Source: an uncultured Dehalococcoidales bacterium
GTDB lineage: Bacteria; Chloroflexota; Dehalococcoidia; Dehalococcoidales; BS750m-G39
Reading direction: 5' to 3'
Assembly (NCBI GenBank): GCA_964396965.1
Contig: CAYNGD010000003.1
Span: 106-64,105, forward strand
Length of the DNA stretch: 64,000 nucleotides
The notes under the pieces: generated by a model
Told to the model about the DNA's origin: nothing
The model's database searches: none
Seen by the model: only the letters and a program-made list of their open reading frames with translations
Part shown: positions 20,050 to 40,958 of the stretch, piece after piece
Layout of the letters: the number at the start of each line of letters is the position of its first letter
Numbering within the stretch: the first letter of the stretch is position 1
Position numbers and translations under genes: made by a program

Positions 20050-21024
20050 ATGCCGGCCAACCTGCCGCCGCAGTACTTTGACGCCGAGAAGAACTTCCGG
20101 GAGGCCAAAGACCCGCTGGAGAAGATAGCCGCCCTGGAGGAGATGCTGGCCATTATGCCCAAGCACAAGGGCACCGACCATCTCCGCGCCGAACTCAGGG
20201 GCCGGATTGCCAAGCTCAGCCAGCTGGCCGCCAAGAAGAGCGGCGCCCGGCGGGCTTCAATGGTCATCGAGAGGGAGGGGGCGGCCCAGGTGGCCGTGGT
20301 CGGCCTGCCCAACGCCGGCAAGTCCCGGCTTATCGCCGCCATCACCAACGCCTCCCCGTCCGTGGCCGAATACCCCTTCACCACCCACAGCGCCACTCCG
20401 GGGATGATGGAGTTCGAGAACATCAAGATACAGCTTATCGATACCCCGCCCCTGGCCCCCCAGACCATCGAGTTCTGGCTGCCGCCCCTGCTCCGGCGGG
20501 CAGACGCCCTGCTGGTCATGGTGGACTTAGGCCGTGACCCGCTGGAACAGATGGAATCCATTATTTCTCAACTGACGAAGATGCGAATACTGATAGAGGA
20601 CGCCGGGGCGGACTCGGAATTCACTATCTGGCACCAGAGGGCGCTTATTATCGGCAGCAAGCTTGACCTTGACGCCGCCGCCCCGAATTTTGAGACGCTC
20701 AGAGGTGAATATGGAGGCCGGTTCCCGGTTATCGCCATCTCCACTGAGCAGGGCACCGGTCTGGAAGAGCTCAAATCCAAAATATATGAGGTTTTGAATA
20801 TCATCCGGGTCTATACCAAGGCACCGGGGCAAAAGCCCGAATTTACCGACCCCATCGTCGTCCCCAGGGGCAGCACCCTGGCCGATGCCGCCGCCGAGGT
20901 GCACAAGGACTTCGCCGCCAATATGAAGTACGCCCGCATCTGGGGCTCGGGCAAGCACGACGGCGTTATGGCCAGGAGAGACCACGTCTTAGAAGACGGC
21001 GATATAATCGAGCTGCACCTTTAG
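20050..21024 (+). CDS. DRG/OBG-family GTPase with TGS domain
   Basis: MPANLPPQY, KHKGTDHL, GLPNAGKS, YPFTT, DTP, IRVYTKAPG, LEDGDIIELH. Confidence 0.9.
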   Translation: MPANLPPQYFDAEKNFREAKDPLEKIAALEEMLAIMPKHKGTDHLRAELRGRIAKLSQLAAKKSGARRASMVIEREGAAQVAVVGLPNAGKSRLIAAITNASPSVAEYPFTTHSATPGMMEFENIKIQLIDTPPLAPQTIEFWLPPLLRRADALLVMVDLGRDPLEQMESIISQLTKMRILIEDAGADSEFTIWHQRALIIGSKLDLDAAAPNFETLRGEYGGRFPVIAISTEQGTGLEELKSKIYEVLNIIRVYTKAPGQKPEFTDPIVVPRGSTLADAAAEVHKDFAANMKYARIWGSGKHDGVMARRDHVLEDGDIIELHL

Positions 21025-22198
21025 TCAGAGCAGCGAGGGCAGCTTCCTGGCCGCCGCCTCCATAGCCCTGGCCTTCTTTATGGCTTCCTCCCGCCGCTTC
21101 TTCACCCGGCGCACCAGTCCGCCAATGATGTCGTAGTAGCCTTTTACCCGCTCGATAGAGCTGAGACCGGAGAGCAGCAGCGTCACCCCCAGCCCCCCCC
21201 CGCCCCCGGGGATAGTCACAGCTCCTTATTACCGCTACCGGCGCCGCACCTTTGAGGAAGCCGCCCAGTTCCTGGAAGAGCTCCGGCCTCATCTCGGCGG
21301 CTGGCGCCGATACCAGGTAAAGCGCTCTGGCGGCATCCTCCGGACGGCAGTCAACCGCCAGCCGGCTCAGGGCTGCCTCCACCGCCGGAATGCCCGCCTG
21401 TCGCTCGGCGGCCCTGCTCCGGAAGCTGCGCCCAAGGCCGAAAAGCCCCCGCGAGGGTAGCGGCGACTGGCCGCAGCCGATGGCGCTCCAGCCGCTGAGC
21501 GTCTGCCTGATATTACCGAAGTCGGCCATGCTCGTTCCAATGTATCTGCTTTTTTCCTCCTCGCCGGCGCAGAGCAGGTCGTAGAAGGGCTCGACCATAA
21601 GCTCGTTGATTTTATCCGGCCTGTCCCTCAGGGCGGCTTCCCGGCTGACATAGCGCTGGTTATCGGCCACTAAGACGGCCTCGGCCACCGAGTGAATAGA
21701 CTTGAGTGATATGGCGGCGTTGTAGGTGAGGTGTTCCTCCTCGGCCTCCTCGTCCCGGAAGGGGAGAACGGCCAGGGCGTAGACCGGCTTGTCCTGGTAG
21801 CAGCCCTTCAAGTCCCGGGCTATTACCGGCATACCGCCAGAGCCGGTGCTGCCGATAACGCTGGCAATGAGCAGGAAGGCATCGGTCTCGAAGAGCCTGC
21901 CGGCGGCCCTTACCGCATCAAGGACTCGGCTGCTGTTTTCCGAGATAATCCCGGCGCCGATTTCGCTCATCCGCACCATCTCTTCACCGTTTGTCCGGGG
22001 GCTTTCGATGAGGATTCGGTGCCGGGGGTCGGGTTTTATAGCCCGCAGGCTTTCCAGGTCGGTCTGGTCAACGTCAACGGCCAAGGCGTCGGTGACTATC
22101 TCCAGCCCCCTTTTGCCCCTGGCTTTTTTGTTCAGACCGGCGAACTCTTGGGCAATCCTTCCCCCGCACCGCCCCACTCCGATGACCAGCAGTTTCAC
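21025..22198 (-). pseudogene. CetZ-like tubulin/FtsZ-family gene, frameshifted at a G9 run (21193-21201)
   Basis: KLLVIGVGRCGGRIA, STGSGG, VLPF, DNQ; CDYPRGRGG continues as LGVTLLLSGLSSIERVKGYY only in another frame; removing one G gives 390 aa ending at TGA 21025. Confidence 0.8.
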
Positions 22199-22832: not shown

Positions 22833-23603
22833 ATGGGTCGCGTGGATGGTAAAACAGCCATCATAACCGGCGCCGCCAGGGGGCTGGGTAAGGCGATGGC
22901 CCAGCTGCTGGCCAGGGAGGGGGCCAGGGTTGTAATTGCCGATATCCTTGAGGACGCAGGCGGGGAGACGGCCGAGGGAATAAAGCGCGAAGGGGGCAAG
23001 GCTATCTTTTTGAGGCATGATGTCACCAGCGAGGATAGCTGGAGCAAGCTAATGGGGAAGACCCTGTCCGAATTCGGCAAGCTGGATGTCCTGGTGAACA
23101 ACGCCGGGGTGATGCTGGTCAAGGAGATTGCCGATACCACCCTTGAGGAGTGGCGCCGGCTCATGAGCGTTAACCTGGACGGCGTTTTCCTGGGGACGAA
23201 GCACGCTATCAGGACGATGAGGGAGAGCGGCGGCGGCTCTATTGTTAATATCTCCTCGGCGGCGGGTCTTATCGGTACTGTTGATGACACGGCGGCCTAT
23301 GTGGCCAGTAAGGGCGCGGTTAGGCTGTTTACCAAGGCGGCGGCCCTGGAGTGCTCTAAGAAAGGCCACAACTATAATATACGGGTTAACTCGGTGCACC
23401 CCGGTGTCATCAAAACGGATATGGTAGCCGGTATGATGGCCCACGATGAGGAGTTCAAGAAGAGGCTGGAGTCCACCCATCCCATCGGCTTTCTGGGCGA
23501 GCCGATAGATATTGCTTACATTGTCCTTTATCTGGCCTCGGACGAGTCCAGGCTGGCCACCGCCGACGAGTTTGTTATTGACGGGGGCTGGACGGGGAGC
23601 TAG
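22833..23603 (+). CDS. Short-chain dehydrogenase/reductase (hydroxysteroid/cyclopentanol dehydrogenase-like)
   Basis: TGAARGLG, NNAG, YVASK, RVNSVHPG; SD AGGAGG. Confidence 0.93.
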   Translation: MGRVDGKTAIITGAARGLGKAMAQLLAREGARVVIADILEDAGGETAEGIKREGGKAIFLRHDVTSEDSWSKLMGKTLSEFGKLDVLVNNAGVMLVKEIADTTLEEWRRLMSVNLDGVFLGTKHAIRTMRESGGGSIVNISSAAGLIGTVDDTAAYVASKGAVRLFTKAAALECSKKGHNYNIRVNSVHPGVIKTDMVAGMMAHDEEFKKRLESTHPIGFLGEPIDIAYIVLYLASDESRLATADEFVIDGGWTGS

Positions 23604-23662: not shown

Positions 23663-23699
23663 ATAACCCATTTCCCCATCCCGCTTTCATCCCAGCGTT

Positions 23700-23745
23700 T
23701 TGCGTCCCATACCCACCCACCCAAAGTGGCTTTGCCTCTCTTAGA
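23700..23745. repeat. Inverted-repeat element, left half only (E2)
   Basis: CCCATACCCACCCACCC at 23706-23722 followed by AAAGTGGCTTTGCCTCTCTTA; no G-tract partner. Confidence 0.7.
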
Positions 23746-23781: not shown

Positions 23782-23809
23782 TTGACACCCAGTATTTCAG
23801 TAGTATAAT
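23782..23809 (+). promoter_or_regulatory. Consensus sigma70 promoter of NYN gene (likely leaderless mRNA)
   Basis: TTGACA-16-TATAAT; ATG 23817 lies 7 nt after the -10 box; no SD. Confidence 0.75.
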
Positions 23810-23816
23810 GCCACCG

Positions 23817-24326
23817 ATGAAGAAACTGCTTTTTAACCAAGCTTTTATTGATGGTACAAACTTATATCTGTCAGCTAAAAATCCAGGATGGGAAATAGAT
23901 TGGTTGTTGTTTAGAGAATATCTGCGGAAGAGGCACAATGTAAGCCATGCTTACTACTTCGTAGGGTACCTAGAGAAATATCGGTACCTTTACGATGAAT
24001 TAAAAGATTATGGCTACATTTTAATCCATAAACCGGTGCTTAAACTACCAGGTGGCGAAATTAAGGGAAATTGTGATGCTGAGTTAGTTTTAAGAGCAAT
24101 GGTTGAGATTAATAATTACAACAAAGCAGTAGTTGTAACAGGTGACGGTGATATAAGCTGTTTGATAGAACATTTGCGTAACATTGACAAGTTCAAGCTT
24201 GTTATAGCGTGCAGGCAAGATAGTTGTTCTTATTTGCTAAGGAAGGCCGCAGGTGGCAATATCATGTTCTTAGATGCTTTGAGGGATAAATTTGAGAAAA
24301 AGCAGAAGGGGCAATTGCAGGATTAG
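23817..24326 (+). CDS. NYN (LabA/DUF88, PIN-like) domain protein
   Basis: AFIDGTNLY, KGNCDAELV, VTGDGD; markedly AT-rich. Confidence 0.88.
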   Translation: MKKLLFNQAFIDGTNLYLSAKNPGWEIDWLLFREYLRKRHNVSHAYYFVGYLEKYRYLYDELKDYGYILIHKPVLKLPGGEIKGNCDAELVLRAMVEINNYNKAVVVTGDGDISCLIEHLRNIDKFKLVIACRQDSCSYLLRKAAGGNIMFLDALRDKFEKKQKGQLQD

Positions 24327-24436: not shown

Positions 24437-25831
24437 TCACACTTTCCTCACCCTTCCTTTCGCTTCCCTCGGCTGGTAGCGGCTGGCTGCCTCAACTAAG
24501 AGCGCCAGGCTCATCAGGAAGTCGTCGTGGCCCTGGGAGGGGTCAACGTAGAAGTTCATCGTCTGCGACGCCCGGAACTGGCTCCTGGCCCTCTCTAATT
24601 CCAGCCAGAACTCCTGCTCATCCTCGGAGCCATCGCTCTTATAGACCTTGAGCCGCCCGGAGTTTATCACCGCTAAGAGGTTGAAGCCAAGCTCGGACTT
24701 GGCCTTGGCGGTGAAGGTAAAAGGAGATACCCTGGGGCCGAGCGTCTTCCTCAAAAAAGAGCTTACCGGCTGGCCGATGCCGGTGGCGTCAACCACCACC
24801 CTGCGGCATTTCCAGACGTTCTTAAGTATATCAACCAGCCGGGGATAAAGTTCGGCGTGCTTCTGGCCGGTCCAGCGGTAGTGCTCCACCACCCGAATCC
24901 GTGGCTGTTTCTGGATTTCGTCGCAGATGGAGAAGTCCAGCTCGCCGATGGTGACCACAGTCGAGTCCTGCCTTAATCTGGGGACGGCCAGATAATCGCC
25001 CTCGGCTATTTCGGCCTCACCGGCGATGTCAATTCCGGCGATGTATATCCTGCCAGGCTCGAGCTGGTGCTTCCGGGGGTGCTCTCCCTTTAGCTGGGCG
25101 AGCTGCTGCTGGCTCAAAAAACCGCCGCCCCCCCGGATGGGCAAAAGCCTATACTGGGTCAGGAAGAGGGGGTGGTTCTCGCCTAATCTCTCCCTCTCCC
25201 CTTCGACGTAGGCGCGGTAGTCCGGGTTGTGCTTGGCTATCTCCTGCCAGTCGTAGCGGAAGTGGCGCTTAATGCCGTCCTGTCTTTCCAGCTCCAGGTT
25301 GGCCTGCTTGACCTCCTCCAGCAGGGTAGTGTCGTCCCAGGTAGTGCCGTAATGAACGGTGGTGACATTGGTGGTGGCTCCCATCGGCTTGAACTCCTTG
25401 GTGTACTTGTCTTTGCTCACGTCCTGGGCTTCGTCTATCTCCAGAAGAATATGGGCGGTATTGCCAACTACGTTGGAAGACTCGTCGGCGGAAAGAAATA
25501 TGGCCCGGGCGCTGCCCAGCCGGATAATATAGCCCATCTCCGGTGTCCAGATGCCGCTGAAACCGGCGTCGTTGAGCCTGTCCCTCAGGCGCATCATGGA
25601 GATAACCGTCTGGGGCTTGAAGGTGGGGGCGCACTTTATCAGGTTTTCGGCCCTGGCCATGTAGAGGGTGAGCAGCAGCAGCTCGAGCTGGGCGGAGAGC
25701 TCGTTCTTGCCCCCCTGGCGGGCCATCTCCACCGAGAAGGTGAGCCCCTTTCTATTGAGGACGCTGTCCAGTATCGCCGAGGCCACCTCCCGCTGGTAGG
25801 GGCGGAGCCTGCTTAAAGCATTTGCTGACAT
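24437..25831 (-). CDS. Terminase large subunit-like protein (ATPase + RNase H-like nuclease)
   Basis: LRPYQ, RQGGKN Walker A, LEIDEAQ Walker B, YGTTW, AGIDIAG, VVVDATGIG, HDDFLMS. Confidence 0.85.
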   Translation of the reverse strand: MSANALSRLRPYQREVASAILDSVLNRKGLTFSVEMARQGGKNELSAQLELLLLTLYMARAENLIKCAPTFKPQTVISMMRLRDRLNDAGFSGIWTPEMGYIIRLGSARAIFLSADESSNVVGNTAHILLEIDEAQDVSKDKYTKEFKPMGATTNVTTVHYGTTWDDTTLLEEVKQANLELERQDGIKRHFRYDWQEIAKHNPDYRAYVEGERERLGENHPLFLTQYRLLPIRGGGGFLSQQQLAQLKGEHPRKHQLEPGRIYIAGIDIAGEAEIAEGDYLAVPRLRQDSTVVTIGELDFSICDEIQKQPRIRVVEHYRWTGQKHAELYPRLVDILKNVWKCRRVVVDATGIGQPVSSFLRKTLGPRVSPFTFTAKAKSELGFNLLAVINSGRLKVYKSDGSEDEQEFWLELERARSQFRASQTMNFYVDPSQGHDDFLMSLALLVEAASRYQPREAKGRVRKV

Positions 25832-25846
25832 AAAACTATTGCCCCT

Positions 25847-26095
25847 CCATTTTTAACCGGTATTTTGTTTCCTATACCCGCCCGCCCAAAAGGCTTTTTA
25901 CCCCAAAAAATCTCCGATTTTTCGGGGGCCCCGTGTTCGCCTCTTAGACTTTCTTTCCCCACCCCGCTGAGCAGTGACGATATCCCCTTCCCCCCTCCCT
26001 CTAGGGGGTTAGAGTTTACAATCCCTAGTTTGGGGTGGGGTAATGAAGTGCTAGAAGCACAGCTTATGAGGGTGGGAGGGCGGGAAAAATAACAA
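25847..26095. repeat. Inverted-repeat element E3 (first 143 bp nearly identical to E4)
   Basis: C-tract 25871-25887, G-tract GGGTGGGAGGGCGGG 26070-26084; about 10 mismatches to 26662-26804. Confidence 0.88.
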
Positions 26096-26130
26096 CCGTT
26101 GATAAAGGGTAATGGGGTGGCTAGAACCCC

Positions 26131-26481
26131 CTATTTGGCTAAATTACCGATAACCTTGATGCCGAGCGGGATGGCGATATCCCTGAGTACATTACCGATG
26201 GCTTCCTTCAGTCCCTGCTTCTGCTCTTTGGTGATGTTGTACTTGGCCTTGACCAGGCGGGTAAGGGTGTTGGTAGCCTGCATCAGCAGCCTGATGTTCT
26301 CAGGGTCGTTTTTCAGGAGGGACTTTATCTTGACCCGGAGCAGGGCGATCTCGTCGTCAAAGCCCTCGACGCCGCTGGCCAGCTCAAAGTCGAGCTGCTC
26401 TGCCTCGTCGAGAACTTTGGAGTAGAAGCTTCGTTTTTTACCCTTTGGGGCGTCTTTTTTTGGCCTTGCCTTTTCCGACAT
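26131..26481 (-). CDS. Putative terminase small subunit
   Basis: 116-aa helical protein (FYSKVL, DDEIALLRVKIKSLL) directly upstream of terL-like gene. Confidence 0.55.
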   Translation of the reverse strand: MSEKARPKKDAPKGKKRSFYSKVLDEAEQLDFELASGVEGFDDEIALLRVKIKSLLKNDPENIRLLMQATNTLTRLVKAKYNITKEQKQGLKEAIGNVLRDIAIPLGIKVIGNLAK

Positions 26482-26584
26482 TAGGCCTGTCTCCGTTCTT
26501 CAGCACTTTAGCGCTCGCCAGCACGATGGTGTGGGCGGCCAGGTCCCACCGCTTGAGTTCTACGGCCAGTCGCAGTAGCCTCAT
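26438..26584 (-). CDS. Small basic hypothetical protein (48 aa), first gene of ter operon
   Basis: SD GGGGAGGG before ATG 26584; MRLLRLAVELKRWDLAAHTIVLAS; overlaps putative terS start. Confidence 0.55.
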   Translation of the reverse strand: MRLLRLAVELKRWDLAAHTIVLASAKVLKNGDRPNVGKGKAKKRRPKG

Positions 26585-26612
26585 CGTCCCTCCCCTTTCT
26601 GTATTTAATATT

Positions 26613-26626
26613 AGCACATATGTTCT
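26613..26626 (-). promoter_or_regulatory. Putative LexA (SOS) box
   Basis: AGAAC-ATAT-GTGCT on minus strand, one mismatch to AGAAC-N4-GTTCT, 29 nt upstream of the operon's first ATG. Confidence 0.55.
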
Positions 26627-26661
26627 ATTATGGCTAGAAGCATTTGTCACAATCCCCACCC

Positions 26662-26902
26662 CCATTTTTAACCGGTGTTTTGTTTCCCATACCCACCCGC
26701 CCAAAAGGTTTTTTACCCCAAAAAATCTCCGATTTTTCGGGGGCCCTGTGTTCGCCTCTTATACTTTCTTTCCTCACCCCGCTAAACAGTGACGACATCC
26801 CCTTTTCTCCTACCCCAAAGGGGAGAAATTATCCTCGTTCCCCTTTTCAAGAGAATTTTAAAGGCGCAGCCTTTGAGGGTGGGAGGGTGGGAAGAAAAAC
26901 GA
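26662..26902. repeat. Inverted-repeat element E4
   Basis: CCCATACCCACCCGCCC 26686-26702; AAAGGCGCAGCCTTTGA then GGGTGGGAGGGTGGG 26877-26891 and AAGAAAAAC. Confidence 0.88.
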
Positions 26903-26974
26903 CTTCCGGCAGAGATAAAGGGATTTTTAAATAAATTGCTATTATAGCCTGAGAGTTATAGAATAAACGAGTAA

Positions 26975-27670
26975 ATGAACGTTGCCAGGCAGCTGTATGA
27001 GCTTCAGGAACTGGACCTGGAGATTGAGTCTGACGAGCAGACGCTGAGGCAGGTCGCCAGCCAGCTCGGCGAGAGCCAGGCGGTAGTCAGAGCTAAGGCG
27101 AAGCTGGAATCCGAGCAGCAGCGCCTTGAGGAGTTAAAGCACCAGCAGCGCACCGCAGAGTGGGAGATAGACGACATCACCAATAAGATTACCGCCGCCG
27201 AGGAGTCCCTCTTCAGCGGCCGCATCAAGAACCCCAAGGAGCTTTCCGGCCTCCAGCACGAGGTCGAGGCGCTTAAAGCCCGGCGCGCTCGGCTTGAGGA
27301 AACAGCGCTGGAGGTGATTGACAGGGTCGAGCAGGCCGAGGCTGGCCTGGCCGAGATGCAGGGCCAGCTGGAAGGCCTGACCGCTGACTGGCGACGCCAG
27401 CAGAAGCAGCTGGCCGTAGAGCAGGCCCGGCTTGAAGCCGTTATCGCTGAGCTTAAGCAGAAACGGCAGCTGCTTTCAGGGCAGATTGAGCCCCAGGCGG
27501 TTGAGCTGTATCAGGCCCTGAAAGATAGCAAGGGGAGGGCGGTAGCCAGGGTGGAGCAGGGGATATGCCGCGGCTGCCGGATATCGCTGCCCATCACCGA
27601 CCTGCAGCGGGCCAGGGGCAATAACCTGGTGCACTGCAGCAGCTGCGGGCGCATCCTCTTCCTGCCTTGA
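26975..27670 (+). CDS. Coiled-coil protein with C4-type zinc ribbon (DUF164 family)
   Basis: LYELQELD, coiled coil, CRGCRI and CSSCGRIL. Confidence 0.9.
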   Translation: MNVARQLYELQELDLEIESDEQTLRQVASQLGESQAVVRAKAKLESEQQRLEELKHQQRTAEWEIDDITNKITAAEESLFSGRIKNPKELSGLQHEVEALKARRARLEETALEVIDRVEQAEAGLAEMQGQLEGLTADWRRQQKQLAVEQARLEAVIAELKQKRQLLSGQIEPQAVELYQALKDSKGRAVARVEQGICRGCRISLPITDLQRARGNNLVHCSSCGRILFLP

Positions 27671-27678
27671 GGGAGCCG

Positions 27679-28080
27679 ATGACGCCGAAAAAGTTAGTAA
27701 TCTATACCGACGGCGCCTCATCGGGCAACCCGGGGCCGGCCTCTATCGGTGCCGTTATTCAGGACGGGCAGGGCAGGGTCATCAGCCGTATCTCCCGGCG
27801 CATCGGCCACGCTACCAATAACCAGGCGGAGTACCGGGCCATAATCGCTTCACTGGAGGAGGCCGCCCGGCTCGGTGCCGAAGAAGTTGACATAAAGTCA
27901 GACTCGGAGCTGGTGGTGAAGCAGCTAAAAGGCCGCTACCGGGTAAAGAAAGCTACTTTAAGGCCGCTCTACCAGGAGGTGGTCCGGCTTGCCGGCTCAC
28001 TTGGGGCCTTCAGTATAACCCACATCCCCCGTGAGCAAAATGTAGAAGCCGACAGGCTGGCCAACCAGGCGCTGGGTTGA
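27679..28080 (+). CDS. rnhA: Ribonuclease HI family protein
   Basis: YTDGASSGNPG, TNNQAEY, SDSELVV, REQNVEADRLAN. Confidence 0.92.
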   Translation: MTPKKLVIYTDGASSGNPGPASIGAVIQDGQGRVISRISRRIGHATNNQAEYRAIIASLEEAARLGAEEVDIKSDSELVVKQLKGRYRVKKATLRPLYQEVVRLAGSLGAFSITHIPREQNVEADRLANQALG

Positions 28081-28112: not shown

Positions 28113-28461
28113 GGTCAAGTAAACTGGGTGACCGCCCCATTTTTGGGGAGGAAAGTCCGAGCTCCACCGGGCAGGATGCTGGCTAACGGCCAGGGGGGGC
28201 GACCCTACGGAGAGTGCCACAGAAACACACCGCCTCCTTCTGGGGGTAAGGGTGAAATGGTGAGGTAAGAGCTCACCGGCGGCTGGGTGACCGGTCGGCT
28301 GGGTAAACCCCATCCGGAGCAAGGCCAAATAGAGGGACACAGGGACGCCCGGCCTGTCCCCGGGTTGGCCGCTTGACCCTGGTGGTAACATCAGGGCTAG
28401 ATAGATGGTCACCGCCCCGATTCGTCGGGGTACAGAACTCGGCTTACAGGTTTACTTGGCC
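28113..28461 (+). ncRNA. rnpB: RNase P RNA (bacterial type A)
   Basis: GAGGAAAGTCC, AGTGCCACAGAAA, AAACCCC, GAGCAAGGCCAAATA, ACAGAACTCGGCTTA; 5'/3' ends pair (GGTCAAGTAAAC / GTTTACTTGGCC). Confidence 0.96.
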
Positions 28462-28558
28462 TTTTGACTTTTGGCACTTTTTGGCAACTAAGGTCATTAG
28501 TGATGCACCCTGTGCAAGGAAGTGCGCCAACTGTGCCGGTTCTGTTCGGTGTTGCCAT
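28409..28558 (-). pseudogene. N-terminal fragment of split integrase-like gene, int(N)
   Basis: AAGGAGG (28567-28573), 8 nt, ATG 28558; 41 codons run through the att core, then stop antisense within rnpB; frame matches the fragment beyond attR. Confidence 0.6.
28436..28462 (+). repeat. attL: 27-bp direct repeat (3' end of rnpB)
   Basis: AACTCGGCTTACAGGTTTACTTGGCCT, identical to 39320-39346. Confidence 0.93.
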
Positions 28559-28997
28559 CGTCTTGCCCTCCTTTTCATCATCTTCGCTTATGATTATAGA
28601 TTTGTCAATAGCCTCGTGTCTGAATGGGACAGATGGATAGCTTTAGTTCGACTTCAATAGGCCAATAGAAAGCAAAGGGGGGTCGGTACAACTATTTCTG
28701 ATCAAATAACTGTCTCTGATTATATGCCATAACTCTCACCTAATGCAGGCTCACTTCGCGGCTGGTTAAACAAAACAATGTTTTGTGACCTGTTTAGCCT
28801 TATATACTTAACTTAGTTGCACCATCTGGACTTTTGGTCAATCAATAGGCATTAATATGCCAAACGAAACAGATTGTCAGTACAATACTTCCTTGCTTGT
28901 TTTCCCCAGCAAGGAAATCTCTTGCCCAACCTATAGCTTGACATGGCAGGCATTTCGTTTATAGTATAGCAAAGACATTCAATTTTGGGATGGACAC

Positions 28998-29411
28998 ATG
29001 GTCAAGCCGAAAACGGCCAAGCCAGGAAATAAACCCTCTCGAAGCCGGGAAGCAGGCTACAGCATAAGAGGCCGCATCTGGGTTGAGAAAGACGGTGAAC
29101 TGTATTTGGGGTGGGGCCGAGTGATACTTTTGGAGCGATTGGATGAGATGGGGTCAATTGCCGCTGCCGCTCGTTCCATGGGGCTAACCTATCGCAATGC
29201 TTGGTTGTGGATAGAGTCCATGAACCGCTTGGCTCCTTCCCCTTTGGTTGAGAAGACAATCGGTGGGGGCGGCGGCGGTCATACCAAACTGACAGAGGAA
29301 GGGCATAAAGCCGTCGCCCTATACAAAGAGTTGCACCTCCATTTAGAGAAACTCTTGGAGCAAGAAGCCCTATACATTAACCACGAAAGTGGTGTCCCCG
29401 TATCCCCTTAA
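28998..29411 (+). CDS. ModE-like winged-helix regulator (DNA-binding domain only)
   Basis: GRIWVE, LGWGRVILL, GSIAAAARSMGLTYRNAW, GGGGGGHTKLT; no TOBE domains. Confidence 0.85.
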   Translation: MVKPKTAKPGNKPSRSREAGYSIRGRIWVEKDGELYLGWGRVILLERLDEMGSIAAAARSMGLTYRNAWLWIESMNRLAPSPLVEKTIGGGGGGHTKLTEEGHKAVALYKELHLHLEKLLEQEALYINHESGVPVSP

Positions 29412-29481
29412 CCTAATAATACTAGCTAAGAACCTTTCAAGGCACGTATCAGCTTTATTTAGCAGTTAAGCCGGATCCCAC

Positions 29482-29510
29482 TTGACAAGTCGCTATACCT
29501 TCTGTAATAT
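29482..29510 (+). promoter_or_regulatory. Sigma70 promoter of ABC uptake operon
   Basis: TTGACA-17-TAATAT. Confidence 0.65.
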
Positions 29511-29524
29511 ACACATAATTTAAA

Positions 29525-29546
29525 CTATATCTCCGCAGATATAGCG
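29525..29546. promoter_or_regulatory. ModE-box-like palindrome
   Basis: CTATATCT-CCGC-AGATATAGCG; related CGCTATAC...ATATAC at 29491-29512 overlaps the promoter. Confidence 0.55.
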
Positions 29547-29589
29547 CCTCAGAACTTTGCCGAGAATAAAACGAAGGAGGTCAATTAAT

Positions 29590-30675
29590 TTGAAAACCAA
29601 GGTCTTGACTATTTTTGCGGTTCTGATTCTAGTAGTTGCTCTAATAGCCAGTTTGACCGGTTGTCAGAGCACGGGCGCTCACAATGCTCCGGCAACACCC
29701 GCGCCTACCACCAGAACCATCACCGATATGTATGGCCGCCAGATCACCGTGCCCACCACGATTAATCGCGTGCTGGGCACCAGCCCGATAGAAATGGAGC
29801 TGGTCTATATGCTTGCCCCGGACAAGCTGGTCGGGCTGGCCGTCGAAGTTAAAGGCCAGCCCCCGCTGGTGCCGGAGAAGTACAGCAGCCTACCTGTAAT
29901 AGGGGGCTGGTTCGGCACCCAGACCGGCAACTACGAGACCTTCATCGCCGCTAAACCGGACATCATCCTAGAGGGCTTCGAATCCAGTATTGCCGAAAGG
30001 CAGGAGAAGTTCGGCTCCATCCCAGTGGTGGGCGTCAACGCCGGTGATTATCTAACGAACTACGAAAACGAGGTGCGCTTCCTGGGGGATCTGCTGGGGG
30101 TACAGGCGCAGGCCCAAAGCCTTATCACCTACTACAAGGATGCCATGCAGTATGTCGAAAACGTTGTTTCCGGTATCCCGGATAATGCCAGGGTAAAAGT
30201 GTACTATGCCGAAGGCAAGGATGGTTTCAGTACCGACCCCTCTGTTTCGATGCATACCAAGTTGCTGGAGTTCTGCGGCGGCGAGAACGTGGCCAAGGTT
30301 ACTTTAATACCGGGTTACGGCATGGCCGAGACATCCCTAGAGCAAATCGCACTGTGGGACCCGGACATGATTATCATCGGCCGCAGCAGTCAGGCAACAC
30401 TGTATCAAACGATTATGACCGACTCCAAATGGAGCCAGCTTAAAGCAGTGAAAAACAAGCAGGTCTTCCTTCGGCCGGATAACCCCCTCTCCTGGTTCGA
30501 TGGCCCGCCGGGGCCGTGCCAGATTATCGGCCTGTACTGGATGGTGCACACGCTGTATCCCGATAAAACTAAAGATTTGGACCTGGGGGCCAAGGTTAAA
30601 GAGTTCTACGCCAAATTTTTGCACTATCAACTGACCGATGCCGAGGTGGCCGGGCTGTTAGCCAATCCAAGCTAA
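29590..30675 (+). CDS. ABC transporter substrate-binding lipoprotein (class III, BtuF/FhuD/MolA-like)
   Basis: TTG start after AAGGAGG; lipobox LTGC; TITDMYGRQITVP, KPDIIL, WDPDMIII. Confidence 0.88.
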   Translation: MKTKVLTIFAVLILVVALIASLTGCQSTGAHNAPATPAPTTRTITDMYGRQITVPTTINRVLGTSPIEMELVYMLAPDKLVGLAVEVKGQPPLVPEKYSSLPVIGGWFGTQTGNYETFIAAKPDIILEGFESSIAERQEKFGSIPVVGVNAGDYLTNYENEVRFLGDLLGVQAQAQSLITYYKDAMQYVENVVSGIPDNARVKVYYAEGKDGFSTDPSVSMHTKLLEFCGGENVAKVTLIPGYGMAETSLEQIALWDPDMIIIGRSSQATLYQTIMTDSKWSQLKAVKNKQVFLRPDNPLSWFDGPPGPCQIIGLYWMVHTLYPDKTKDLDLGAKVKEFYAKFLHYQLTDAEVAGLLANPS

Positions 30676-30679
30676 AAAA

Positions 30680-31759
30680 ATGGTTACTGTGGAAAAGGTA
30701 AAGCCGGGCGCGAAGAACTCAAGCTCCGTCCAGGCAAAGAGACTGGGACTGGGCGGGGTATCTACCGGCGTTATTCTGGCCGGTATACTGGCAGTGCTTT
30801 TCATCCTCTCGTTCGCTATTGGCAGATACCCCGTCTCCCCCGTGGATGTGGTCAAGATACTGGTTTCTCATATTCTGCCTCTGCAGCATACTTGGCCCGA
30901 TATACTGAATACGATAGTGATACAGATAAGACTGCCGAGAATACTGGCGGCGATACTGGTAGGCGCCAGCCTAGCGCTGGCTGGCGCCTCCTTTCAGGGA
31001 CTCTTTCGCAACCCGCTGGTGTCTCCAGATATTCTGGGAGTCAGCACGGGCGCCGGCTTCGGCGCCGCCGTGGCTATCCTGCTCTCCTGGAACATGGTCA
31101 TGATACAGGTAGCCGCCTTCATCAGCGCTTTGGTGGCCGTGGGCGTTTCCTACGGCGTGAGCAAGATGGTCAAAGGTAACACTACACTGACCCTCATTCT
31201 GGCGGGCATGGCTATCGGCTCTCTCTTCGGTGCCTTACTTTCTCTGGTGAAATACGTCGCCGACCCCACCAACCAGTTGCCCACCATCACCTACTGGCTC
31301 ATGGGCAGTCTGGCTTCGGTAAGTACACGTGACCTGCTTTTCGCCGCTATCCCGATGCTGGTGGGTATCGCTGTGCTCATCCTTATCCGCTGGCGCTTCA
31401 ACGTGTTGGCGATGGGTGAGGAAGAAGCCATGGCACTGGGAGTAGAAACCAGCCGGCTGCGTGCCATAATCATCGTCTGCTGCACCATGATTACGGCCTC
31501 CTCGGTATGTATCAGCGGCACCATCGGCTGGGTGGGGCTGGTTATTCCCCATATCGGCCGCATGCTGGTAGGGCCGAACCACAGAAGACTCCTCCCCGTG
31601 AGTCTGCTGTTGGGAGCGGCTTACCTCCTGCTGATTGACAATATCTGCCGGGTAGTGGCCAGTGTGGAGATTCCGATAGGGATTCTCACGGCGATTGTCG
31701 GCGTGCCGTTCTTTATTTACCTGCTCAACAGGAGCGGAAGGGGGTGGGCATGGAGCTAA
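30680..31759 (+). CDS. FecCD/BtuC-family ABC permease
   Basis: IRLPRI, FRNPLVSPDILGVS, GTIGWVGLVIPH. Confidence 0.92.
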   Translation: MVTVEKVKPGAKNSSSVQAKRLGLGGVSTGVILAGILAVLFILSFAIGRYPVSPVDVVKILVSHILPLQHTWPDILNTIVIQIRLPRILAAILVGASLALAGASFQGLFRNPLVSPDILGVSTGAGFGAAVAILLSWNMVMIQVAAFISALVAVGVSYGVSKMVKGNTTLTLILAGMAIGSLFGALLSLVKYVADPTNQLPTITYWLMGSLASVSTRDLLFAAIPMLVGIAVLILIRWRFNVLAMGEEEAMALGVETSRLRAIIIVCCTMITASSVCISGTIGWVGLVIPHIGRMLVGPNHRRLLPVSLLLGAAYLLLIDNICRVVASVEIPIGILTAIVGVPFFIYLLNRSGRGWAWS

Positions 31760-32592
31760 TAGTAAATAATGCCGAATTCCACTATGATGCCATCGGAAAC
31801 AGCGGTTTTAAGAACATCAACTTCTCCCTGGAAGATGGCGAGGTAATGTCCATTCTCGGCCCCAATGGTTGCGGCAAGACGACCCTGCTGAAGTGCCTCA
31901 ACAACTTGATTAGACTCGGTAAAGGGAGCATAGCGGTGGATAATCAGGATGTATCGCGTCTGCCCAGAGCCGAGATAGCCAGGTCTATCGGCTATGTGCC
32001 GCAGATGCACCAGCCTGTCTTCCCCTTTACTGTCCTGGATACCGTGCTGGTGGGTAGAGCGCCTCACCTTGGGCTGCTGGCTTCCCCGAAACCGGAGGAT
32101 GTTAAAATTGCCGAACAATCCTTGGACATTATGGGCATTTATCATCTTAGGGATAGACCTTATACCCAGATAAGCGGCGGTGAGAGGCAACTGGTTATCT
32201 TTGCCCGGGTGTTGGCCCAGCAGCCGGCACTTCTCCTTCTGGATGAACCCACCTCGCACCTGGACTTTGGCAATCAGATACGCGTTTTGCACTTGGTGGA
32301 GGAGCTGGCGGCCACCGGCCTTCCTATCATCATGACTACCCACTTCCCTGACCACGCCTTTCTTATGTCCAGCAAGGTGGCTATCATGAAAAATGGTGAG
32401 TTCTTGGACTTTGGCCCGCCTGATGAAGTTATTACCGATGCCAATCTGGAGAAGGCCTACGGCATCAAGGTTAAGGTGCTGGATGTGGATGGCGCTATTA
32501 ACCGAAGAATATGCCTGCCCCTCAAGAGCGACCTTAACTCTATCTCAAACTTAAATATTCTATTGGAGAGACTGTATGGACGAAAACTTTGA
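31750..32592 (+). CDS. ABC transporter ATP-binding protein (FepC/BtuD-like)
   Basis: GPNGCGKTT, ISGGERQ, LLDEPT. Confidence 0.92.
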   Translation: MELIVNNAEFHYDAIGNSGFKNINFSLEDGEVMSILGPNGCGKTTLLKCLNNLIRLGKGSIAVDNQDVSRLPRAEIARSIGYVPQMHQPVFPFTVLDTVLVGRAPHLGLLASPKPEDVKIAEQSLDIMGIYHLRDRPYTQISGGERQLVIFARVLAQQPALLLLDEPTSHLDFGNQIRVLHLVEELAATGLPIIMTTHFPDHAFLMSSKVAIMKNGEFLDFGPPDEVITDANLEKAYGIKVKVLDVDGAINRRICLPLKSDLNSISNLNILLERLYGRKL

Positions 32593-33115
32593 TTTTCTTC
32601 TGCAAAAAGCCAAGGCTTTTCACGGTGATGTCTGTGCCGGTATAGTCCTGGGCACACGATTGACCATAGCCGGCATGAAGGCTCTGGGTATGGACCCCAC
32701 AAAGCGTAACCGCGACCTTATCGTTTTTGTGGAGATTGACCGCTGTATGTCAGACGCAGTGCAGGCCATTACGGGCTGTTCACTGGGGCACCGCACCCTG
32801 AAGTATATTAACTACGGCAGGTTTGCTGCCACTTTCTATGACATGAGTAGAAACCGGGCAGTGCGTGTCTCCCGACGTAATCTACCTATGGGTAATGAAG
32901 ACCTTGTTGAAGCATACACAAACGCTCCAGAAGAGGAGTTGATCAAACTGGAGGAGGTTAAAGTCAGCCTGGATAGTCATGACCTGCCGGGCAGGCCACA
33001 ATCGATGGAGGAGTGCAGCCATTGTGGCGAGCTTATCTTTGATAGTAGAGGGGTCAATGCGGATGGTAAGCTCTTGTGCCGGGCCTGTGCCAGTGGTGCT
33101 TATTATAGCCATTAA
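32576..33115 (+). CDS. FmdE family protein with C-terminal zinc finger
   Basis: FHGDVCAG, EIDRCMSDAVQ, CSLGHRTL, CSHCGE...CRAC. Confidence 0.88.
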   Translation: MDENFDFLLQKAKAFHGDVCAGIVLGTRLTIAGMKALGMDPTKRNRDLIVFVEIDRCMSDAVQAITGCSLGHRTLKYINYGRFAATFYDMSRNRAVRVSRRNLPMGNEDLVEAYTNAPEEELIKLEEVKVSLDSHDLPGRPQSMEECSHCGELIFDSRGVNADGKLLCRACASGAYYSH

Positions 33116-33143
33116 CCAAAGAGCCAGATAAGGAGGCAAAAAC

Positions 33144-33890
33144 ATGATGAAGCTAATAGACGACCTTATTTCAGCAGTACGTCATAATGCCGCTTCGGCT
33201 AAGGATGTGCGAGTGGGGGTCTCTTGGACCGGGGTATGGGGCAAGTACTGCGGGCTTTCCAAGACCTACGGTGTACCTTTTGTCCATGGCAACTACACCC
33301 GTGATATGGGCCACTTGACCGAAAAGACCACCCTGGAACTGGCGGAGTACGCCAAGTCCTGGAACCTGATTGAGGCCAGCATCGGGGTAGCCGCCATCAA
33401 TTCGATGATTAAGGCTAAAGGGGCAGTCAACATCAACGCACGGGAAATCATCCTGCGTAAGGGGCAGGGCAAACGGATAGCGATGTCGGGTGCCTTTCCC
33501 TTTACCCCGGAACTCAAAAAGCTGGCCAAGCAGTTGTGGGTGATGGAACTGGACCAGAGTCAGCTTAATCCAGCCCAAGGCATCATCACTGAAACTGCTG
33601 CTGAATACATCATTCCAGAGTGCGACATAGTGATTATCACCGGCTCCACACTCATCAATAAATCCATGGAAAGACTGCTGGAACTGGCCCGGTTAGCTAA
33701 AGCCTATACTGTTGTTCTCGGCCCCAGCACTCCACTGAGTGAAGTTCTTTTTGACTATGGCGCTCACTTGGTAGCAGGCGCTGAAGTCGTCCAGCCTGAA
33801 GCGGTGCTCAAGAAGCTAAGCCAGAGCGGGGGCATGCTGGATACCAAGGTCTGCCCGGGCGAAATTGCATTTAAGGTTCTGGAAAGATGA
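33144..33890 (+). CDS. DUF364 family protein (Rossmann-like, putative metal chelation)
   Basis: ASIGVAAINS, IITGSTLIN, LGPSTPL. Confidence 0.85.
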   Translation: MMKLIDDLISAVRHNAASAKDVRVGVSWTGVWGKYCGLSKTYGVPFVHGNYTRDMGHLTEKTTLELAEYAKSWNLIEASIGVAAINSMIKAKGAVNINAREIILRKGQGKRIAMSGAFPFTPELKKLAKQLWVMELDQSQLNPAQGIITETAAEYIIPECDIVIITGSTLINKSMERLLELARLAKAYTVVLGPSTPLSEVLFDYGAHLVAGAEVVQPEAVLKKLSQSGGMLDTKVCPGEIAFKVLER

Positions 33891-34537
33891 ACTACCAGAC
33901 CGACCCTCAGCGGATGAACCTGATTGCCAAACTCGCCTTTGCCCCGATATACCCCTATTTAGCCCAGCAGATAAGGGACAAGTTCGGCATAACCAATGGA
34001 ATATGCGTTGACCTTGGTTCGGGCCCGGCCTCACTGGCTATCGCCATAGCCCGCATCACCGATTTAACCATCTATTCCTTGGACATCCAGCCTGAGATGA
34101 TCAGTGTTGCTCGGCAGAATATCGCCGAAGCCGGGTTTTCTTCCCGTATACGCGCCGTAACTGCCGATGTGTGTCGGATGCCCTTTGAAGATAATTCGGT
34201 TGACCTGATGGTTAGCCGCGGCTCTATTTTCTTCTGGGAAGACCGGGTAACGGCTTTCCGGGAAATATACCGTGTCCTCCGGCCCGGCGGGGTAGCCTAC
34301 TGCGGCGGCAGCCTTGGTGACGATACCACGCGGGCGCAGGTAATAGCCGCCTTCAATACCATTGCTGAACTCCAACCATATAAGGAAGATTGGCAGCACA
34401 CAGTCAGCCGCAATATGAATAAGCTGACCTTGGAAACCATGCTCGAAGAACTGGGGCAGGCTGGCGTGCCGGGCACCGTGGAAAAAGAAAACGGAGGTAT
34501 CTGGGCACAGATAATCAAACTGAATAACGAGGCGTAA
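33887..34537 (+). CDS. Class I SAM-dependent methyltransferase
   Basis: VDLGSGPA, DVCRMPF, SRGSIFFW, VLRPGG. Confidence 0.88.
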   Translation: MNYQTDPQRMNLIAKLAFAPIYPYLAQQIRDKFGITNGICVDLGSGPASLAIAIARITDLTIYSLDIQPEMISVARQNIAEAGFSSRIRAVTADVCRMPFEDNSVDLMVSRGSIFFWEDRVTAFREIYRVLRPGGVAYCGGSLGDDTTRAQVIAAFNTIAELQPYKEDWQHTVSRNMNKLTLETMLEELGQAGVPGTVEKENGGIWAQIIKLNNEA

Positions 34538-34775
34538 TAATGGGCAACAGCGATATAACTCCGGGAAGCAGCCCGAGGAATATAGACTGGGCACTGGTAT
34601 GGTGGAACAAATGTCTTGAATAGGTCTAGTCTCCGCACCCCACAACTATTGGCGGTCCTAATTACCAAGAAGTCTTGTTCTGGTTCAGACCCAAGATAGT
34701 CCTAAGAATAGGATACGAGGTCTAACTTGACTTTTAAAGCTGTTTGCAGTAGTTCTTATAAGTATTCAGGAAAAG

Positions 34776-35558
34776 ATGAAAATAAAGCAAGCTTTTGATA
34801 TTCACACTGGTGAAGTGATAAGTCTCGTAGGTGGCGGTGGCAAAACGGCTCTGATGTTTGCCATAGCCCGTGAAATGGTTCTGGACAAGAACCGAATTAT
34901 TACCACGACCACCACCAAAATCTTCGAACCCTTACCTTCTCAGACACAAAAACTTCTTGTGGAGAAAAATGAGGTGAAACTGCTAAAGTTGCTGCTCCAG
35001 CAAATTGATAATTACACTCATATCACCTTAGCCAGTGAAAAACTAGGTTCGGGAAAGTTAAATGGCATCAACCCAGAGCTGGTGACAAAGCTAGCCGGAA
35101 TTGAGAAAATATCTTGCATTATTATTGAAGCAGACGGAGCAGCACACAAATCGCTGAAAGCACCAAACGCAACGGAGCCGGTAATGCCAGATAATACCTC
35201 CCTGGTCATACCAGTCGTGGGCGTTGATGCCTTGGGTTGCCGCTTGACTAAAGAAGAGGTTTTTAGACCAGAAATTGCTGCCGAGTTACTCGGAGTGCCC
35301 ATTGGCGAGGTTATGACAGCCGAGTTGATTGCTCGCTTGATAACTCACCCCCGGGGTATAACCAAAGGAAGCCCGGAAGGGGCAAGGATTATCCCGTTTA
35401 TAAATAAAATGGATTTAAATGAAGGTTTGTCAAAGGGAAGAATCATGGCAAATATGATTTTGGCAATGGGTCATTCTCAAATAAAGTACGTCGTGCTAGG
35501 TCAAGCTCAATCACCAAACCCTGTGACAGAAGTCATTCGGGAGAAAAATCATGGCTGA
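34776..35558 (+). CDS. yqeC: YqeC-family selenium/molybdenum hydroxylase accessory protein
   Basis: SLVGGGGKT, TTTTKI, EADGA..K.LKAP..TEPV.P. Confidence 0.87.
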   Translation: MKIKQAFDIHTGEVISLVGGGGKTALMFAIAREMVLDKNRIITTTTTKIFEPLPSQTQKLLVEKNEVKLLKLLLQQIDNYTHITLASEKLGSGKLNGINPELVTKLAGIEKISCIIIEADGAAHKSLKAPNATEPVMPDNTSLVIPVVGVDALGCRLTKEEVFRPEIAAELLGVPIGEVMTAELIARLITHPRGITKGSPEGARIIPFINKMDLNEGLSKGRIMANMILAMGHSQIKYVVLGQAQSPNPVTEVIREKNHG

Positions 35559-35818
35559 TATCTATGCCGATTGTCCTTAAAGACATTGCTGCTTCACTGT
35601 ACCTGCAAGTCTCAAGTACGCTCCTGACATTAAACAACAGTGATTTTAAAATTATCCCCTCTGAGGAGAGACTCCAACATAATGGAATCGCGTTCAAAGC
35701 CGATTACTTATAAGACTGAACATTACGCTATCTTGTGTCGGGGGGTTTTGGGCGTGTGAGGGCAGGCTACGTGCCGAAGTATATCATTGCTTATTCTCTC
35801 TCCGCAGTCTTTAGCAGG

Positions 35819-35848
35819 TTGACAAATACCTATTGCATAAAATATAAT
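35819..35848 (+). promoter_or_regulatory. Sigma70 promoter of Fur-family gene
   Basis: TTGACA-18-TATAAT. Confidence 0.65.
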
Positions 35849-35864
35849 TGCAACTAGGTGCAAT
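35847..35864. promoter_or_regulatory. Putative Fur-family operator, copy 1
   Basis: ATTGCAACTAGGTGCAAT, one mismatch to the palindrome at 36315. Confidence 0.75.
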
Positions 35865-35868
35865 AACC

Positions 35869-36282: not shown

Positions 36283-36314
36283 CTGAAGGGTACAGATTAT
36301 TTTTTTGCTCTTGT

Positions 36315-36332
36315 ATTGCAACTAGTTGCAAT
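36315..36332. promoter_or_regulatory. Putative Fur-family operator, copy 2 (perfect palindrome)
   Basis: ATTGCAACT-AGTTGCAAT upstream of the cbiM SD. Confidence 0.8.
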
Positions 36333-36359
36333 TAGAATAAGGAGGTAAAGGAGTATCAG

Positions 36360-39027: not shown

Positions 39028-39083
39028 GGAATATTACCAGAACGGAACCAACGATATAGATGTACTTAGTTATTGCCTGGCCT

Positions 39084-39319: not shown

Positions 39320-39346
39320 AACTCGGCTTACAGGTTTACTTGGCCT
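39320..39346 (+). repeat. attR: displaced copy of rnpB 3' end
   Basis: AACTCGGCTTACAGGTTTACTTGGCCT, identical to 28436-28462. Confidence 0.93.
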
Positions 39347-40950: not shown

Positions 40951-40958
40951 TAAAGAAG

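Follow-up and report, generated by a model that had tools for sequence, protein, structure and literature searches.

A head-gene-less terminase operon at a fixed chromosomal site in Dehalococcoidales, and its possible place in a split, gene transfer agent-like system

A terminase operon without structural genes

The stretch of DNA analysed here (the window; 64,000 nucleotides (nt) from an uncultured Dehalococcoidales bacterium, to whose numbering all positions refer) carries an operon for a phage-type large and small terminase, TerL and TerS. In the list of open reading frames (ORFs) of the window, the operon consists of three genes on the minus strand, in the order small ORF, terS, terL:

26438-26584, minus strand: small ORF, first gene of the operon, 48 amino acids (aa), best read from the ATG at 26584
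26131-26481, minus strand: TerS-like small terminase gene, 116 aa, directly upstream of terL
24437-25831, minus strand: TerL-like gene, 464 aa, with an N-terminal ATPase and a C-terminal RNase H-like nuclease

The terS gene overlaps the small ORF in the +1 frame and is separated from terL by 299 nt. The 464-aa TerL ORF is intact, and its composition (GC 0.59; GC at third codon positions, GC3, 0.79) resembles that of UvrC and Obg in the window. Searches by tblastn with the head-operon proteins of relatives, described below, found no homologue of the portal, scaffold, capsid, adaptor, helix-turn-helix (HTH) or 667-aa proteins in the window, even at E<=1. Nor is there a phage integrase in the 64 kb: the sole tyrosine recombinase (14280-15203) is XerD and passes the XerD equivalog cutoff. 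An earlier note on this DNA had described a small ORF, terS-like and terL-like genes on one strand, a TerL free of stops and host-like in GC, no portal, capsid or tail genes, and flanks devoid of an integrase, all of which is borne out. Given the ORFs, the fold of TerL (see below), the tblastn result and the presence of XerD as the only tyrosine recombinase, the observation of an intact terminase operon without structural genes is confirmed.

The large terminase is predicted to have both motor and nuclease domains

The window TerL matched no Pfam, NCBIfam or PADLOC model, and a sequence search against the PDB was uninformative, finding no solved structure. It does match TerL families in PHROGs (phrog_5909 at 9e-9 and phrog_38 at 8e-6), and many of its homologues match PF17289. 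We analysed an AlphaFold2 model of the protein, derived from an alignment of 59 sequences with identities as low as 32%, which has a predicted local distance difference test score (pLDDT) of 93.1. In Foldseek comparisons the model aligned over both domains to solved full-length TerLs, with HK97 (6z6d) as the top match at an E value of 1.5e-15, followed by D6E, Sf6 gp2 and T4 gp17 (E 1e-15 to 1e-13, probability 1.00). Its ATPase domain aligns to the ATPase domains of P74-26 and T4, and its nuclease domain superposes on the G20c and P74-26 nucleases with template-modelling scores of 0.73-0.79 normalised to the target. The earlier note had let its reading stand or fall with a structure prediction of this kind, and the protein is, as modelled, a large terminase with the two-domain architecture of ATPase and nuclease.

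The catalytic motifs fall in conserved columns of the 59-sequence alignment. These include Walker A (RQGGKN, residues 38-43, with R38, Q39, G41 and K42), Walker B (D133-E134) and the GT motif (G162-T163), and the acidic nuclease residues D268, D348 and D436/D437 are at least 90% conserved. Across the family Walker A reads RQxGKNE (residues 38-44), with Asn43 where Ser or Thr is usual after the Lys; this Asn-type motif is common to the whole family, from integrase-bearing phages through to chromosomal copies. The earlier statement that TerL keeps its motifs therefore holds for Walker B, the GT motif and the nuclease aspartates, and needs qualification for Walker A, which is present with Asn replacing Ser/Thr. 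The solved TerLs of HK97 (6Z6D), D6E (5OE8), Sf6 (gp2, 4IEI) and T4 (gp17, 3CPE) have the same two-domain fold and share the Walker B and nuclease acids, but they are only 10-16% identical to the window TerL and differ from it at the Walker A Asn. The closest TerL from a cultured phage, that of Bacillus phage vB_BboS-125, is 32% identical.

The window TerS has no family match of its own in Pfam, PHROGs, NCBIfam or PADLOC. Among 35 orthologues, however, 29 match the TerS family phrog_1889 (best 4.9e-11) and 27 match phrog_509, and a TerS orthologue lies directly upstream of TerL in 82 of 85 loci. These matches span only about positions 76-138 of TerS profiles that are 238-276 positions long, so a classical N-terminal DNA-binding domain appears to be missing; the window TerS also has no match to an HTH family in Pfam. 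A single-sequence model is helical and of low confidence (pLDDT 56), and a profile search against the PDB was uninformative. Most orthologues carry an N-terminal GNQNARKHG motif that is absent from TerS of the window and of L004 (L-numbers denote related loci gathered for comparison).

The 48-aa ORF matched no known family in the same four collections. At its N-terminus, 28 aa (MRLLRLAVExxRWDLAAHTIVLA) hardly vary across more than 55 species and are found in some phage relatives as well, and its basic tail overlaps terS; the protein may act together with TerS. We considered that a programmed frameshift might join the small ORF and terS into one product and dropped the idea, there being no conserved slippery run.

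The operon occupies a fixed site and evolves with its host flanks

TerL homologues number more than 3,800 in the protein database, the best 120 of which are 78-92% identical to the window TerL and of nearly equal length. A scan of one genome per species identified a TerL relative in at least 266 species-level genomes, and the best 80 of the 266 are all Dehalococcoidia or Dehalococcoidales metagenome-assembled genomes (69-88% identity). Among loci with enough flank the arrangement is near-constant, and it recurs in most of the 85 related loci: RNase H and a CT398-like gene lie on one strand, with small ORF-terS-terL divergent from them. In the window this conserved flank, the marker of the ancestral site, comprises:

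26975-27670, plus strand: CT398-like coiled-coil/Zn-ribbon protein (Pfam PF24481, PF02591), together with the RNase H flank
27667-28080, plus strand: RNase H, conserved host flank
28116-28462, plus strand: RNase P RNA, rnpB (Rfam RF00010, 311 bits)

Mean pairwise identity is 75% for TerL, 62% for TerS, 60% for RNase H and 51% for CT398, and divergence of TerL tracks that of the host flanks (Spearman correlation of distances 0.5-0.6). Synonymous divergence (dS) of TerL between the window and L004 is 0.54, with flanking genes at 0.34 and 0.50; between the window and L006 it is 0.62, with flanking genes at 0.75 and 1.10. The ratio of nonsynonymous to synonymous divergence (dN/dS) of TerL is 0.07-0.20 in close genome pairs and 0.11-0.15 between the window and L004, L006 and L007. 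That TerL dS is close to flank dS while dN/dS is low argues for a long shared history under purifying selection, not for recent transfer. The sequence comparisons thus indicate old vertical inheritance of the operon, under purifying selection, at a fixed chromosomal site. TerL is intact in 84 of the 85 loci; the only disrupted copy, in L063 (L063:10001-11365), has a single in-frame stop.

The window belongs to a clade with L004, L006, L007 and L250, whose TerLs are 84-93% identical to one another and whose gene order is always terL, variable genes, an SDR gene, DUF5658 and, further on, a CetZ-like gene. Inside this clade the TerL ORF is intact in all five members, with dN/dS of 0.11-0.20 at dS of 0.27-0.62. 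The earlier note had allowed that the orthologues might always sit in complete, sporadic prophages with the present copy a decaying remnant. What we found is a fixed site without integrase or early genes, and selection within the clade at the strength just given.

A podophage-like head operon lies nearby in many relatives and apart in others

In many relatives a second, podophage-like operon for a phage head lies 0-10 kb downstream of terL. Its gene order is HTH protein, portal, scaffold, capsid, a few small proteins, SU10-type adaptor, a 667-aa protein and a 70-aa protein. The HTH protein is Cys-rich, with weak Mor and late-activator matches. The portal (PF05133 at 1.8e-28, phrog_64 at 4e-39), the 306-aa HK97-type capsid protein (phrog_212 at 6e-69) and the adaptor (PF24175 at 1.4e-9) are recognized by family models; the scaffold-like protein is a coiled coil and the 667-aa protein gives a weak tail match. 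We saw no tail tube or tape-measure gene in the head operons, and judging by these genes the particle, if made, would be short-tailed. Complete head operons are found in L067, L248 and L251/L252, and in L252 the operon is followed by a FAD-dependent protein, ribosomal protein S21 and YqeY, the ancestral right flank. A metagenome scan identified at least 579 capsid loci, of which the best 80 were kept (83-90% identical to the query). The head proteins are as conserved as TerL, with mean pairwise identities of 78% (capsid) and 69.5% (portal) and dN/dS of 0.04-0.13.

Along the TerL tree the two operons draw progressively apart: the head operon is found at +0-3 kb in basal lineages and at +8-10 kb in a derived clade, behind a spacer of 8-10 kb of host-like genes, and several clades have none within 10 kb. 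In the window's clade a head operon is absent within 10-24 kb in all five members. No capsid or adaptor homologue was matched on contigs of this clade, the only match (P0402-P0089) being the ordinary +7.7-kb arrangement. The description of the operon as an orphan is therefore right for the window's clade (five sampled lineages) and for several others, among them L043 (closed chromosome CP070842.1), and wrong for sister lineages with a head operon 0-10 kb downstream. Comparison with one such sister locates the change. The downstream flank of terL in the window, the expected place for a head operon, carries:

23808-24326, plus strand: NYN-domain gene, adjoining terL (PADLOC NYN/LabA-like and HEC-09 models)
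22833-23603, plus strand: SDR gene
20966-22198, minus strand: tubulin-superfamily, CetZ-like gene

In the sister locus L249 an orthologous SDR (79% identical) is followed by an Ig-like protein and then by a complete HTH-portal-capsid operon, whereas in the window the SDR is followed by DUF5658 and then the CetZ-like gene. The breakpoint thus lies just beyond the SDR.

Head operons also occur by themselves. Intact, operator-bearing head operons without TerL within 7.7 kb upstream or 10 kb downstream were found in L246, L140, L117, L163, L132, L131, L116 and L159, which means that split loci exist. The L246 operon, on a 307-kb contig, adjoins DnaJ and GpsA, a context repeated in L140 and L117, and those of L163, L132 and L131 adjoin enolase and GAPDH. 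A head operon is missing from the vicinity of about 40-45% of TerL loci, and TerL from that of a comparable fraction of head operons; such matching unpaired shares would be expected of a system with split loci. The lack of an adjacent head operon brings no relaxation of selection on TerL, for which the median dN/dS is 0.144 across 49 genome pairs of the non-adjacent kind, against 0.122 across 103 head-adjacent ones. Some head operons have decayed, with the capsid gene deleted in L001, L054 and L072 and a recombinase inserted in that of L009. In L001 a single deletion took out scaffold, capsid and adaptor genes, and what appears there as a 430-aa portal (L001:14722-16014) is the resulting fusion, in which the N-terminal part of the portal is joined to the C-terminal part of the 667-aa protein.

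Packaging and head operons share a promoter-embedded operator

An alignment of 53 upstream regions revealed strong conservation over the 70 nt that precede the small ORF. In the window we recognize the following elements, the -35 and -10 hexamers being our own putative assignment from the sequence:

26608-26650, minus strand: conserved promoter and operator, 27 nt upstream of the small-ORF ATG
26650-26644, minus strand: GTGACAA, conserved upstream element
26636-26631, minus strand: -35-like TAGCCA
26627-26612, minus strand: 16-bp near-palindromic operator TAGAACATATGTGCTA, overlapping the spacer and the extended -10
26616-26608, minus strand: putative extended -10, TGC-TAATAT

A generic promoter scan did not call this conserved promoter, and terminators were predicted no more often than by chance. 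The window copy of TAGAACATATGTGCTA is perfect, and other members of its clade show 0-1 changes. Upstream of the HTH-portal operon no word is more over-represented than this 16-mer, which is present at 53 of 61 loci. With up to 2 mismatches allowed in 1.65 Mb of DNA, matches stand upstream of the small ORF or terS at 72 loci and upstream of the HTH gene at 61, and almost every other match is one of these sites again, on the complementary strand. Split head operons keep the operator, and some phage relatives carry it. The packaging and head operons are linked by this common predicted operator.

The consensus palindrome, TAGAAC-ATAT-GTTCTA, contains the sequence GAAC-N4-GTTC. This is the Cheo box, the LexA box of Gram-positive bacteria, and the LexA of Dehalococcoides reportedly binds a box of this type. 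Because a palindrome resembling GAAC-N4-GTTC overlaps the -10, a position that suits a repressor, LexA is the likeliest regulator, and we infer that it may control both operons. Neither lexA nor recA occurs in the DNA gathered for comparison. The bare pattern GAAC-N4-GT[TG]C is non-specific, with four matches in the window against about four expected from base composition by our own estimate; at this chance frequency only the conserved 16-mer is informative. A perfect palindrome of the Cheo-box pattern, GAACGGATGTTC, lies at 41223-41234 inside the ORF 40959-42155; with some four occurrences of the loose pattern expected by chance in a stretch of this length, it is probably fortuitous.

Integrase-bearing phages are close relatives of the chromosomal loci

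Relatives were found on 484 IMG/VR contigs. Three of these, L166, L168 and L170, appear to be chromosomal copies of the element, free of an integrase: they carry the HTH gene between terL and portal and group with chromosomal loci in the TerL tree, and the shared operator is seen in L166 and L170. Virus-prediction pipelines list chromosomal loci as viral contigs, which inflates virus counts. Other IMG/VR relatives are contiguous TerS-TerL-portal-scaffold-capsid-adaptor genomes of 13-23 kb. L189 is 17.2 kb long and apparently circularly permuted, with a tyrosine integrase (phrog_216 at 5e-38) and a RusA-like resolvase. In L167 and L169 an integrase, a replication-like protein and a nucleotidyltransferase-like protein are encoded just upstream of terS, and their TerLs are 73-77% identical to that of the window.

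These podophage-like genomes (L167, L169, L189) have the same gene set and order as the chromosomal loci, a TerS of about 120 aa and, in some, the same operator; their TerLs are 58-77% identical to the window's, and the capsid reaches 77% in L167 and L169. They differ in carrying the tyrosine integrase, the replication-like and nucleotidyltransferase-like proteins and RusA, which the chromosomal loci lack, in having the portal directly after TerL with no Mor-like HTH gene between, and in lacking the CT398/RNase H flank. Homologues of the integrase and early genes occur at 36 of 80 IMG/VR loci and at none of the 165 loci first gathered around a TerL or capsid gene. In a neighbour-joining TerL tree, which has no support values, the CT398-flanked clade has the integrase-bearing genomes outside it or at its base.

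Repeats resembling miniature inverted-repeat transposable elements (MITEs) flank terS

Two near-full copies of a MITE-like repeat flank terS:

25838-26096: MITE-like palindromic repeat, copy A, between terS and terL
26653-26903: MITE-like repeat, copy B, just upstream of the conserved promoter

The copies are direct repeats, 89% identical over 165 nt. The element is about 250 nt long, with G-rich/C-rich ends (CCCACCC...GGGTGGG), and folds as a long hairpin (z = -3.7); the intergenic repeats have no Rfam match. Fragments of its ends lie at 1898-1950, 23673-23725, 45032-45080, 46671-46714, 58367-58418 and 58635-58692, and occur in related loci too. Where relatives lack the insertion (L004, L001), the end of terS runs some 55-60 nt into terL, and TerL has 12-14 more residues. 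Copy A ends 13 nt before the TerL ATG and provides a GGAGG-like sequence at that point.

A domesticated, split packaging system as the favoured reading

The operon holds a fixed position, has diverged together with its host flanks under purifying selection, and is intact; it shares a cis-element with the head operons, some of which stand without TerL. The reading that we favour, with a confidence somewhat above even, is that the operon in the window represents the packaging half of a split gene transfer agent (GTA)-like system, derived from a domesticated phage and still functional. A small temperate podophage of about 17-23 kb would have been captured beside CT398/RNase H/rnpB in the ancestor of a large Dehalococcoidales clade, would have lost its integrase and early genes, and would have descended vertically from then on; a single capture is the simplest history. 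Two late operons would have been left, one for small ORF-TerS-TerL and one for the Mor-like HTH protein, portal, scaffold, capsid, adaptor, 667-aa and 70-aa proteins, each behind an operator-bearing promoter and held off by a repressor, most likely LexA. On induction procapsids would be made from the head operon, and cellular DNA, cut by TerS and TerL, would be driven into them by way of the portal. The two operons would have come apart in the window's clade through a rearrangement at the breakpoint past the SDR, and we infer that the head operon persists at another locus, still served by the terminase.

Several points weigh against this proposal. For none of the five clade members (the window, L004, L006, L007 and L250) is a head operon shown in the genome, in no single genome are both halves of a split system linked, and the decay of head operons in some lineages makes outright loss possible. 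Copy A of the repeat broke the terS-terL overlap, and coupling may be impaired; the window TerS lacks GNQNARKHG, the motif that gives the TerS profile matches. LexA control is proposed from the resemblance of the operator to a known box, a GTA-like function is predicted by computation from the gene content, and the trees are neighbour-joining trees without support values.

The earlier note had proposed a domesticated DNA-packaging motor that might serve a split GTA-like system, a capsid-hijacking satellite, or a new nuclease or translocase role. This reading is borne out in part: the operon is intact, host-like in composition, free of an integrase and under strong purifying selection, and the first of the three options fits best. 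The satellite is not supported: the lineage has its own portal, scaffold and capsid, and there are no satellite-type integrase or replication genes.

The third proposal deserves more weight, unlikely as we consider it. The head operon may have been lost and TerS-TerL kept for a capsid-independent role, for example as a damage-induced nuclease or translocase acting on chromosomal or invading DNA. All five clade members lack a head operon within 10-24 kb, yet their TerL dN/dS is still 0.11-0.20 at dS of 0.27-0.62 and the operator is retained; moreover, TerL is intact where the local head operon has lost its capsid gene (L001, L054, L072). Capsid deletions of the L001 type may, however, be recent or compensated elsewhere in the genome, and TerL-less split head operons at a matching frequency are the simpler explanation. 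The active-site and family-invariant residues are the same as in integrase-bearing phages, so that there is no sign of neofunctionalisation, and we found no precedent for free-standing TerS/TerL function. If true, such an exaptation would give the host a viral packaging motor as an SOS-type-regulated, stand-alone, ATP-driven nuclease or translocase.

That the operon is instead a slowly decaying remnant, its head operon gone and its terminase genes functionless but so far undisrupted, strikes us as improbable. Signs of decay can be cited: the MITE-like insertion parts terS from terL and abolishes their overlap, the window terS lacks the motif behind the TerS profile matches, the module-less relative L063 has an in-frame stop in TerL, and head genes decay in several lineages. 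At the dS of 0.27-0.62 reached within the clade, however, a 1.4-kb TerL ORF remains intact in five members with dN/dS no higher than in head-adjacent lineages, the non-coding operator is perfect in the window, and the codon composition of TerL is host-like.

We give little credence to action of the terminase in trans, whereby TerS-TerL would work on the procapsids or genomes of co-resident related podophages, as help or as defensive sabotage. Suitable partners exist among integrase-bearing phages with 73-77% TerL identity, some of them with the same operator, and a foreign NYN nuclease gene with PADLOC matches adjoins TerL; but that gene is not conserved at this position, and linkage to the element's own head operon is the ancestral and still common state. 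Least probable of all is an active prophage, or a satellite akin to phage-inducible chromosomal islands (PICIs) using helper capsids. Close integrase-bearing relatives exist (L167 and L169, TerL 73-77%; L189, phrog_216 5e-38), and some chromosomal copies are flagged as viral in IMG/VR, but neither the window nor the 165 loci first gathered around TerL or capsid contain integrase, replication or early genes, XerD being the only tyrosine recombinase of the window, the housekeeping flanks recur in the same place across scores of species, the two operons are as much as 10 kb apart in relatives, with host genes between them, TerL dS equals host-flank dS, and the lineage, unlike satellites, encodes its own capsid.

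Comparison with known domesticated phages

Agents of the RcGTA type, from Rhodobacter capsulatus and other Alphaproteobacteria, are likewise chromosomal phage-derived genes without integration or replication genes, which descend vertically under purifying selection and can occupy multiple loci under common regulation; the likeness of the Dehalococcoidales element is one of gene content and inheritance. A GTA-type TerS is described as short and devoid of a recognisable N-terminal DNA-binding domain (PMC6854486), which is also true of the Dehalococcoidales TerS. The short TerS is found in the mobile phage relatives as well, and is therefore not a mark of domestication here. The Chloroflexota element would be of independent origin, with a small podophage-like parent where that of RcGTA was siphovirus-like, and in place of CtrA/GafA control it has a LexA-box-like operator and a Mor-like HTH protein; the window holds only the terminase operon.

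Another parallel is offered by PBSX-type defective prophages of Bacillus, which are conserved within a host lineage and encode, from the chromosome, phage-derived particles that do not infect. PBSX is inducible by DNA damage and packages host DNA. The present operator resembles the Gram-positive LexA (Cheo) box, and the element may be under SOS control. The genes of PBSX form a single uninterrupted cluster of myovirus type that includes a repressor and lysis functions, whereas the present element is podophage-like and often split. PICI-like satellites have their own integrase and replication genes and no capsid gene, and they redirect the capsids of a helper, a description that does not apply to this element.

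GTAs and comparable domesticated phages are known from only a few lineages, and we found no description of a GTA-like element in Chloroflexota in the searchable literature. Dehalococcoidales are abundant, mostly uncultured bacteria of sediments and the subsurface. Podophage-derived packaging and head genes have apparently been kept for very long across hundreds of their species. If particles are made, they would provide a route of gene exchange in sediment and subsurface communities and an independent case of phage taming. The loci form a natural series, from integrase-bearing phage through contiguous domesticated cluster and split loci to a terminase-only locus, with a simple shared operator; series and operator together make questions on the origin and regulation of GTAs directly testable.

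Neighbouring genes

The earlier note's account of the flanks, an NYN gene and housekeeping genes, is accurate: the NYN gene lies on one side of the operon and CT398/RNase H/rnpB on the other. The NYN gene stands out in composition (GC 0.38 and GC3 0.40; the window has 0.57), and relatives do not keep it at this position. It is probably a recent foreign arrival in a variable hotspot, and possibly defence-related. Unrelated NYN genes occur in the spacer between terL and the head operon of L009 and L251.

The CetZ family is mainly archaeal. CetZ-like genes are present in several Dehalococcoidales loci (L006, L007, L043, L163 and L250), and the orthologue in L250 matches PF00091 (Tubulin) and PF21011 (CetZ_C).

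On the other side of the operon, a block of genes for a CtpB-like protease, a radical SAM protein and a methyltransferase follows RNase H by about 0.5-1 kb in L004, L250 and L251, and is found at 43670-47362 in the window. From this displacement we deduce that some 15 kb, including ABC-transporter genes, were inserted next to rnpB (about 28500-43600).

The window further encodes a family 1 encapsulin shell protein (1030-1821, plus strand; NF041155 at 2.4e-64). A link between this encapsulin and the terminase was considered and dropped as unsupported, the protein being an ordinary family 1 encapsulin 23 kb away with no portal; here too the earlier note, which saw nothing to connect the two, was right. 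Two small ORFs upstream of the encapsulin gene, 222-617 and 645-1013, are possible cargo genes.

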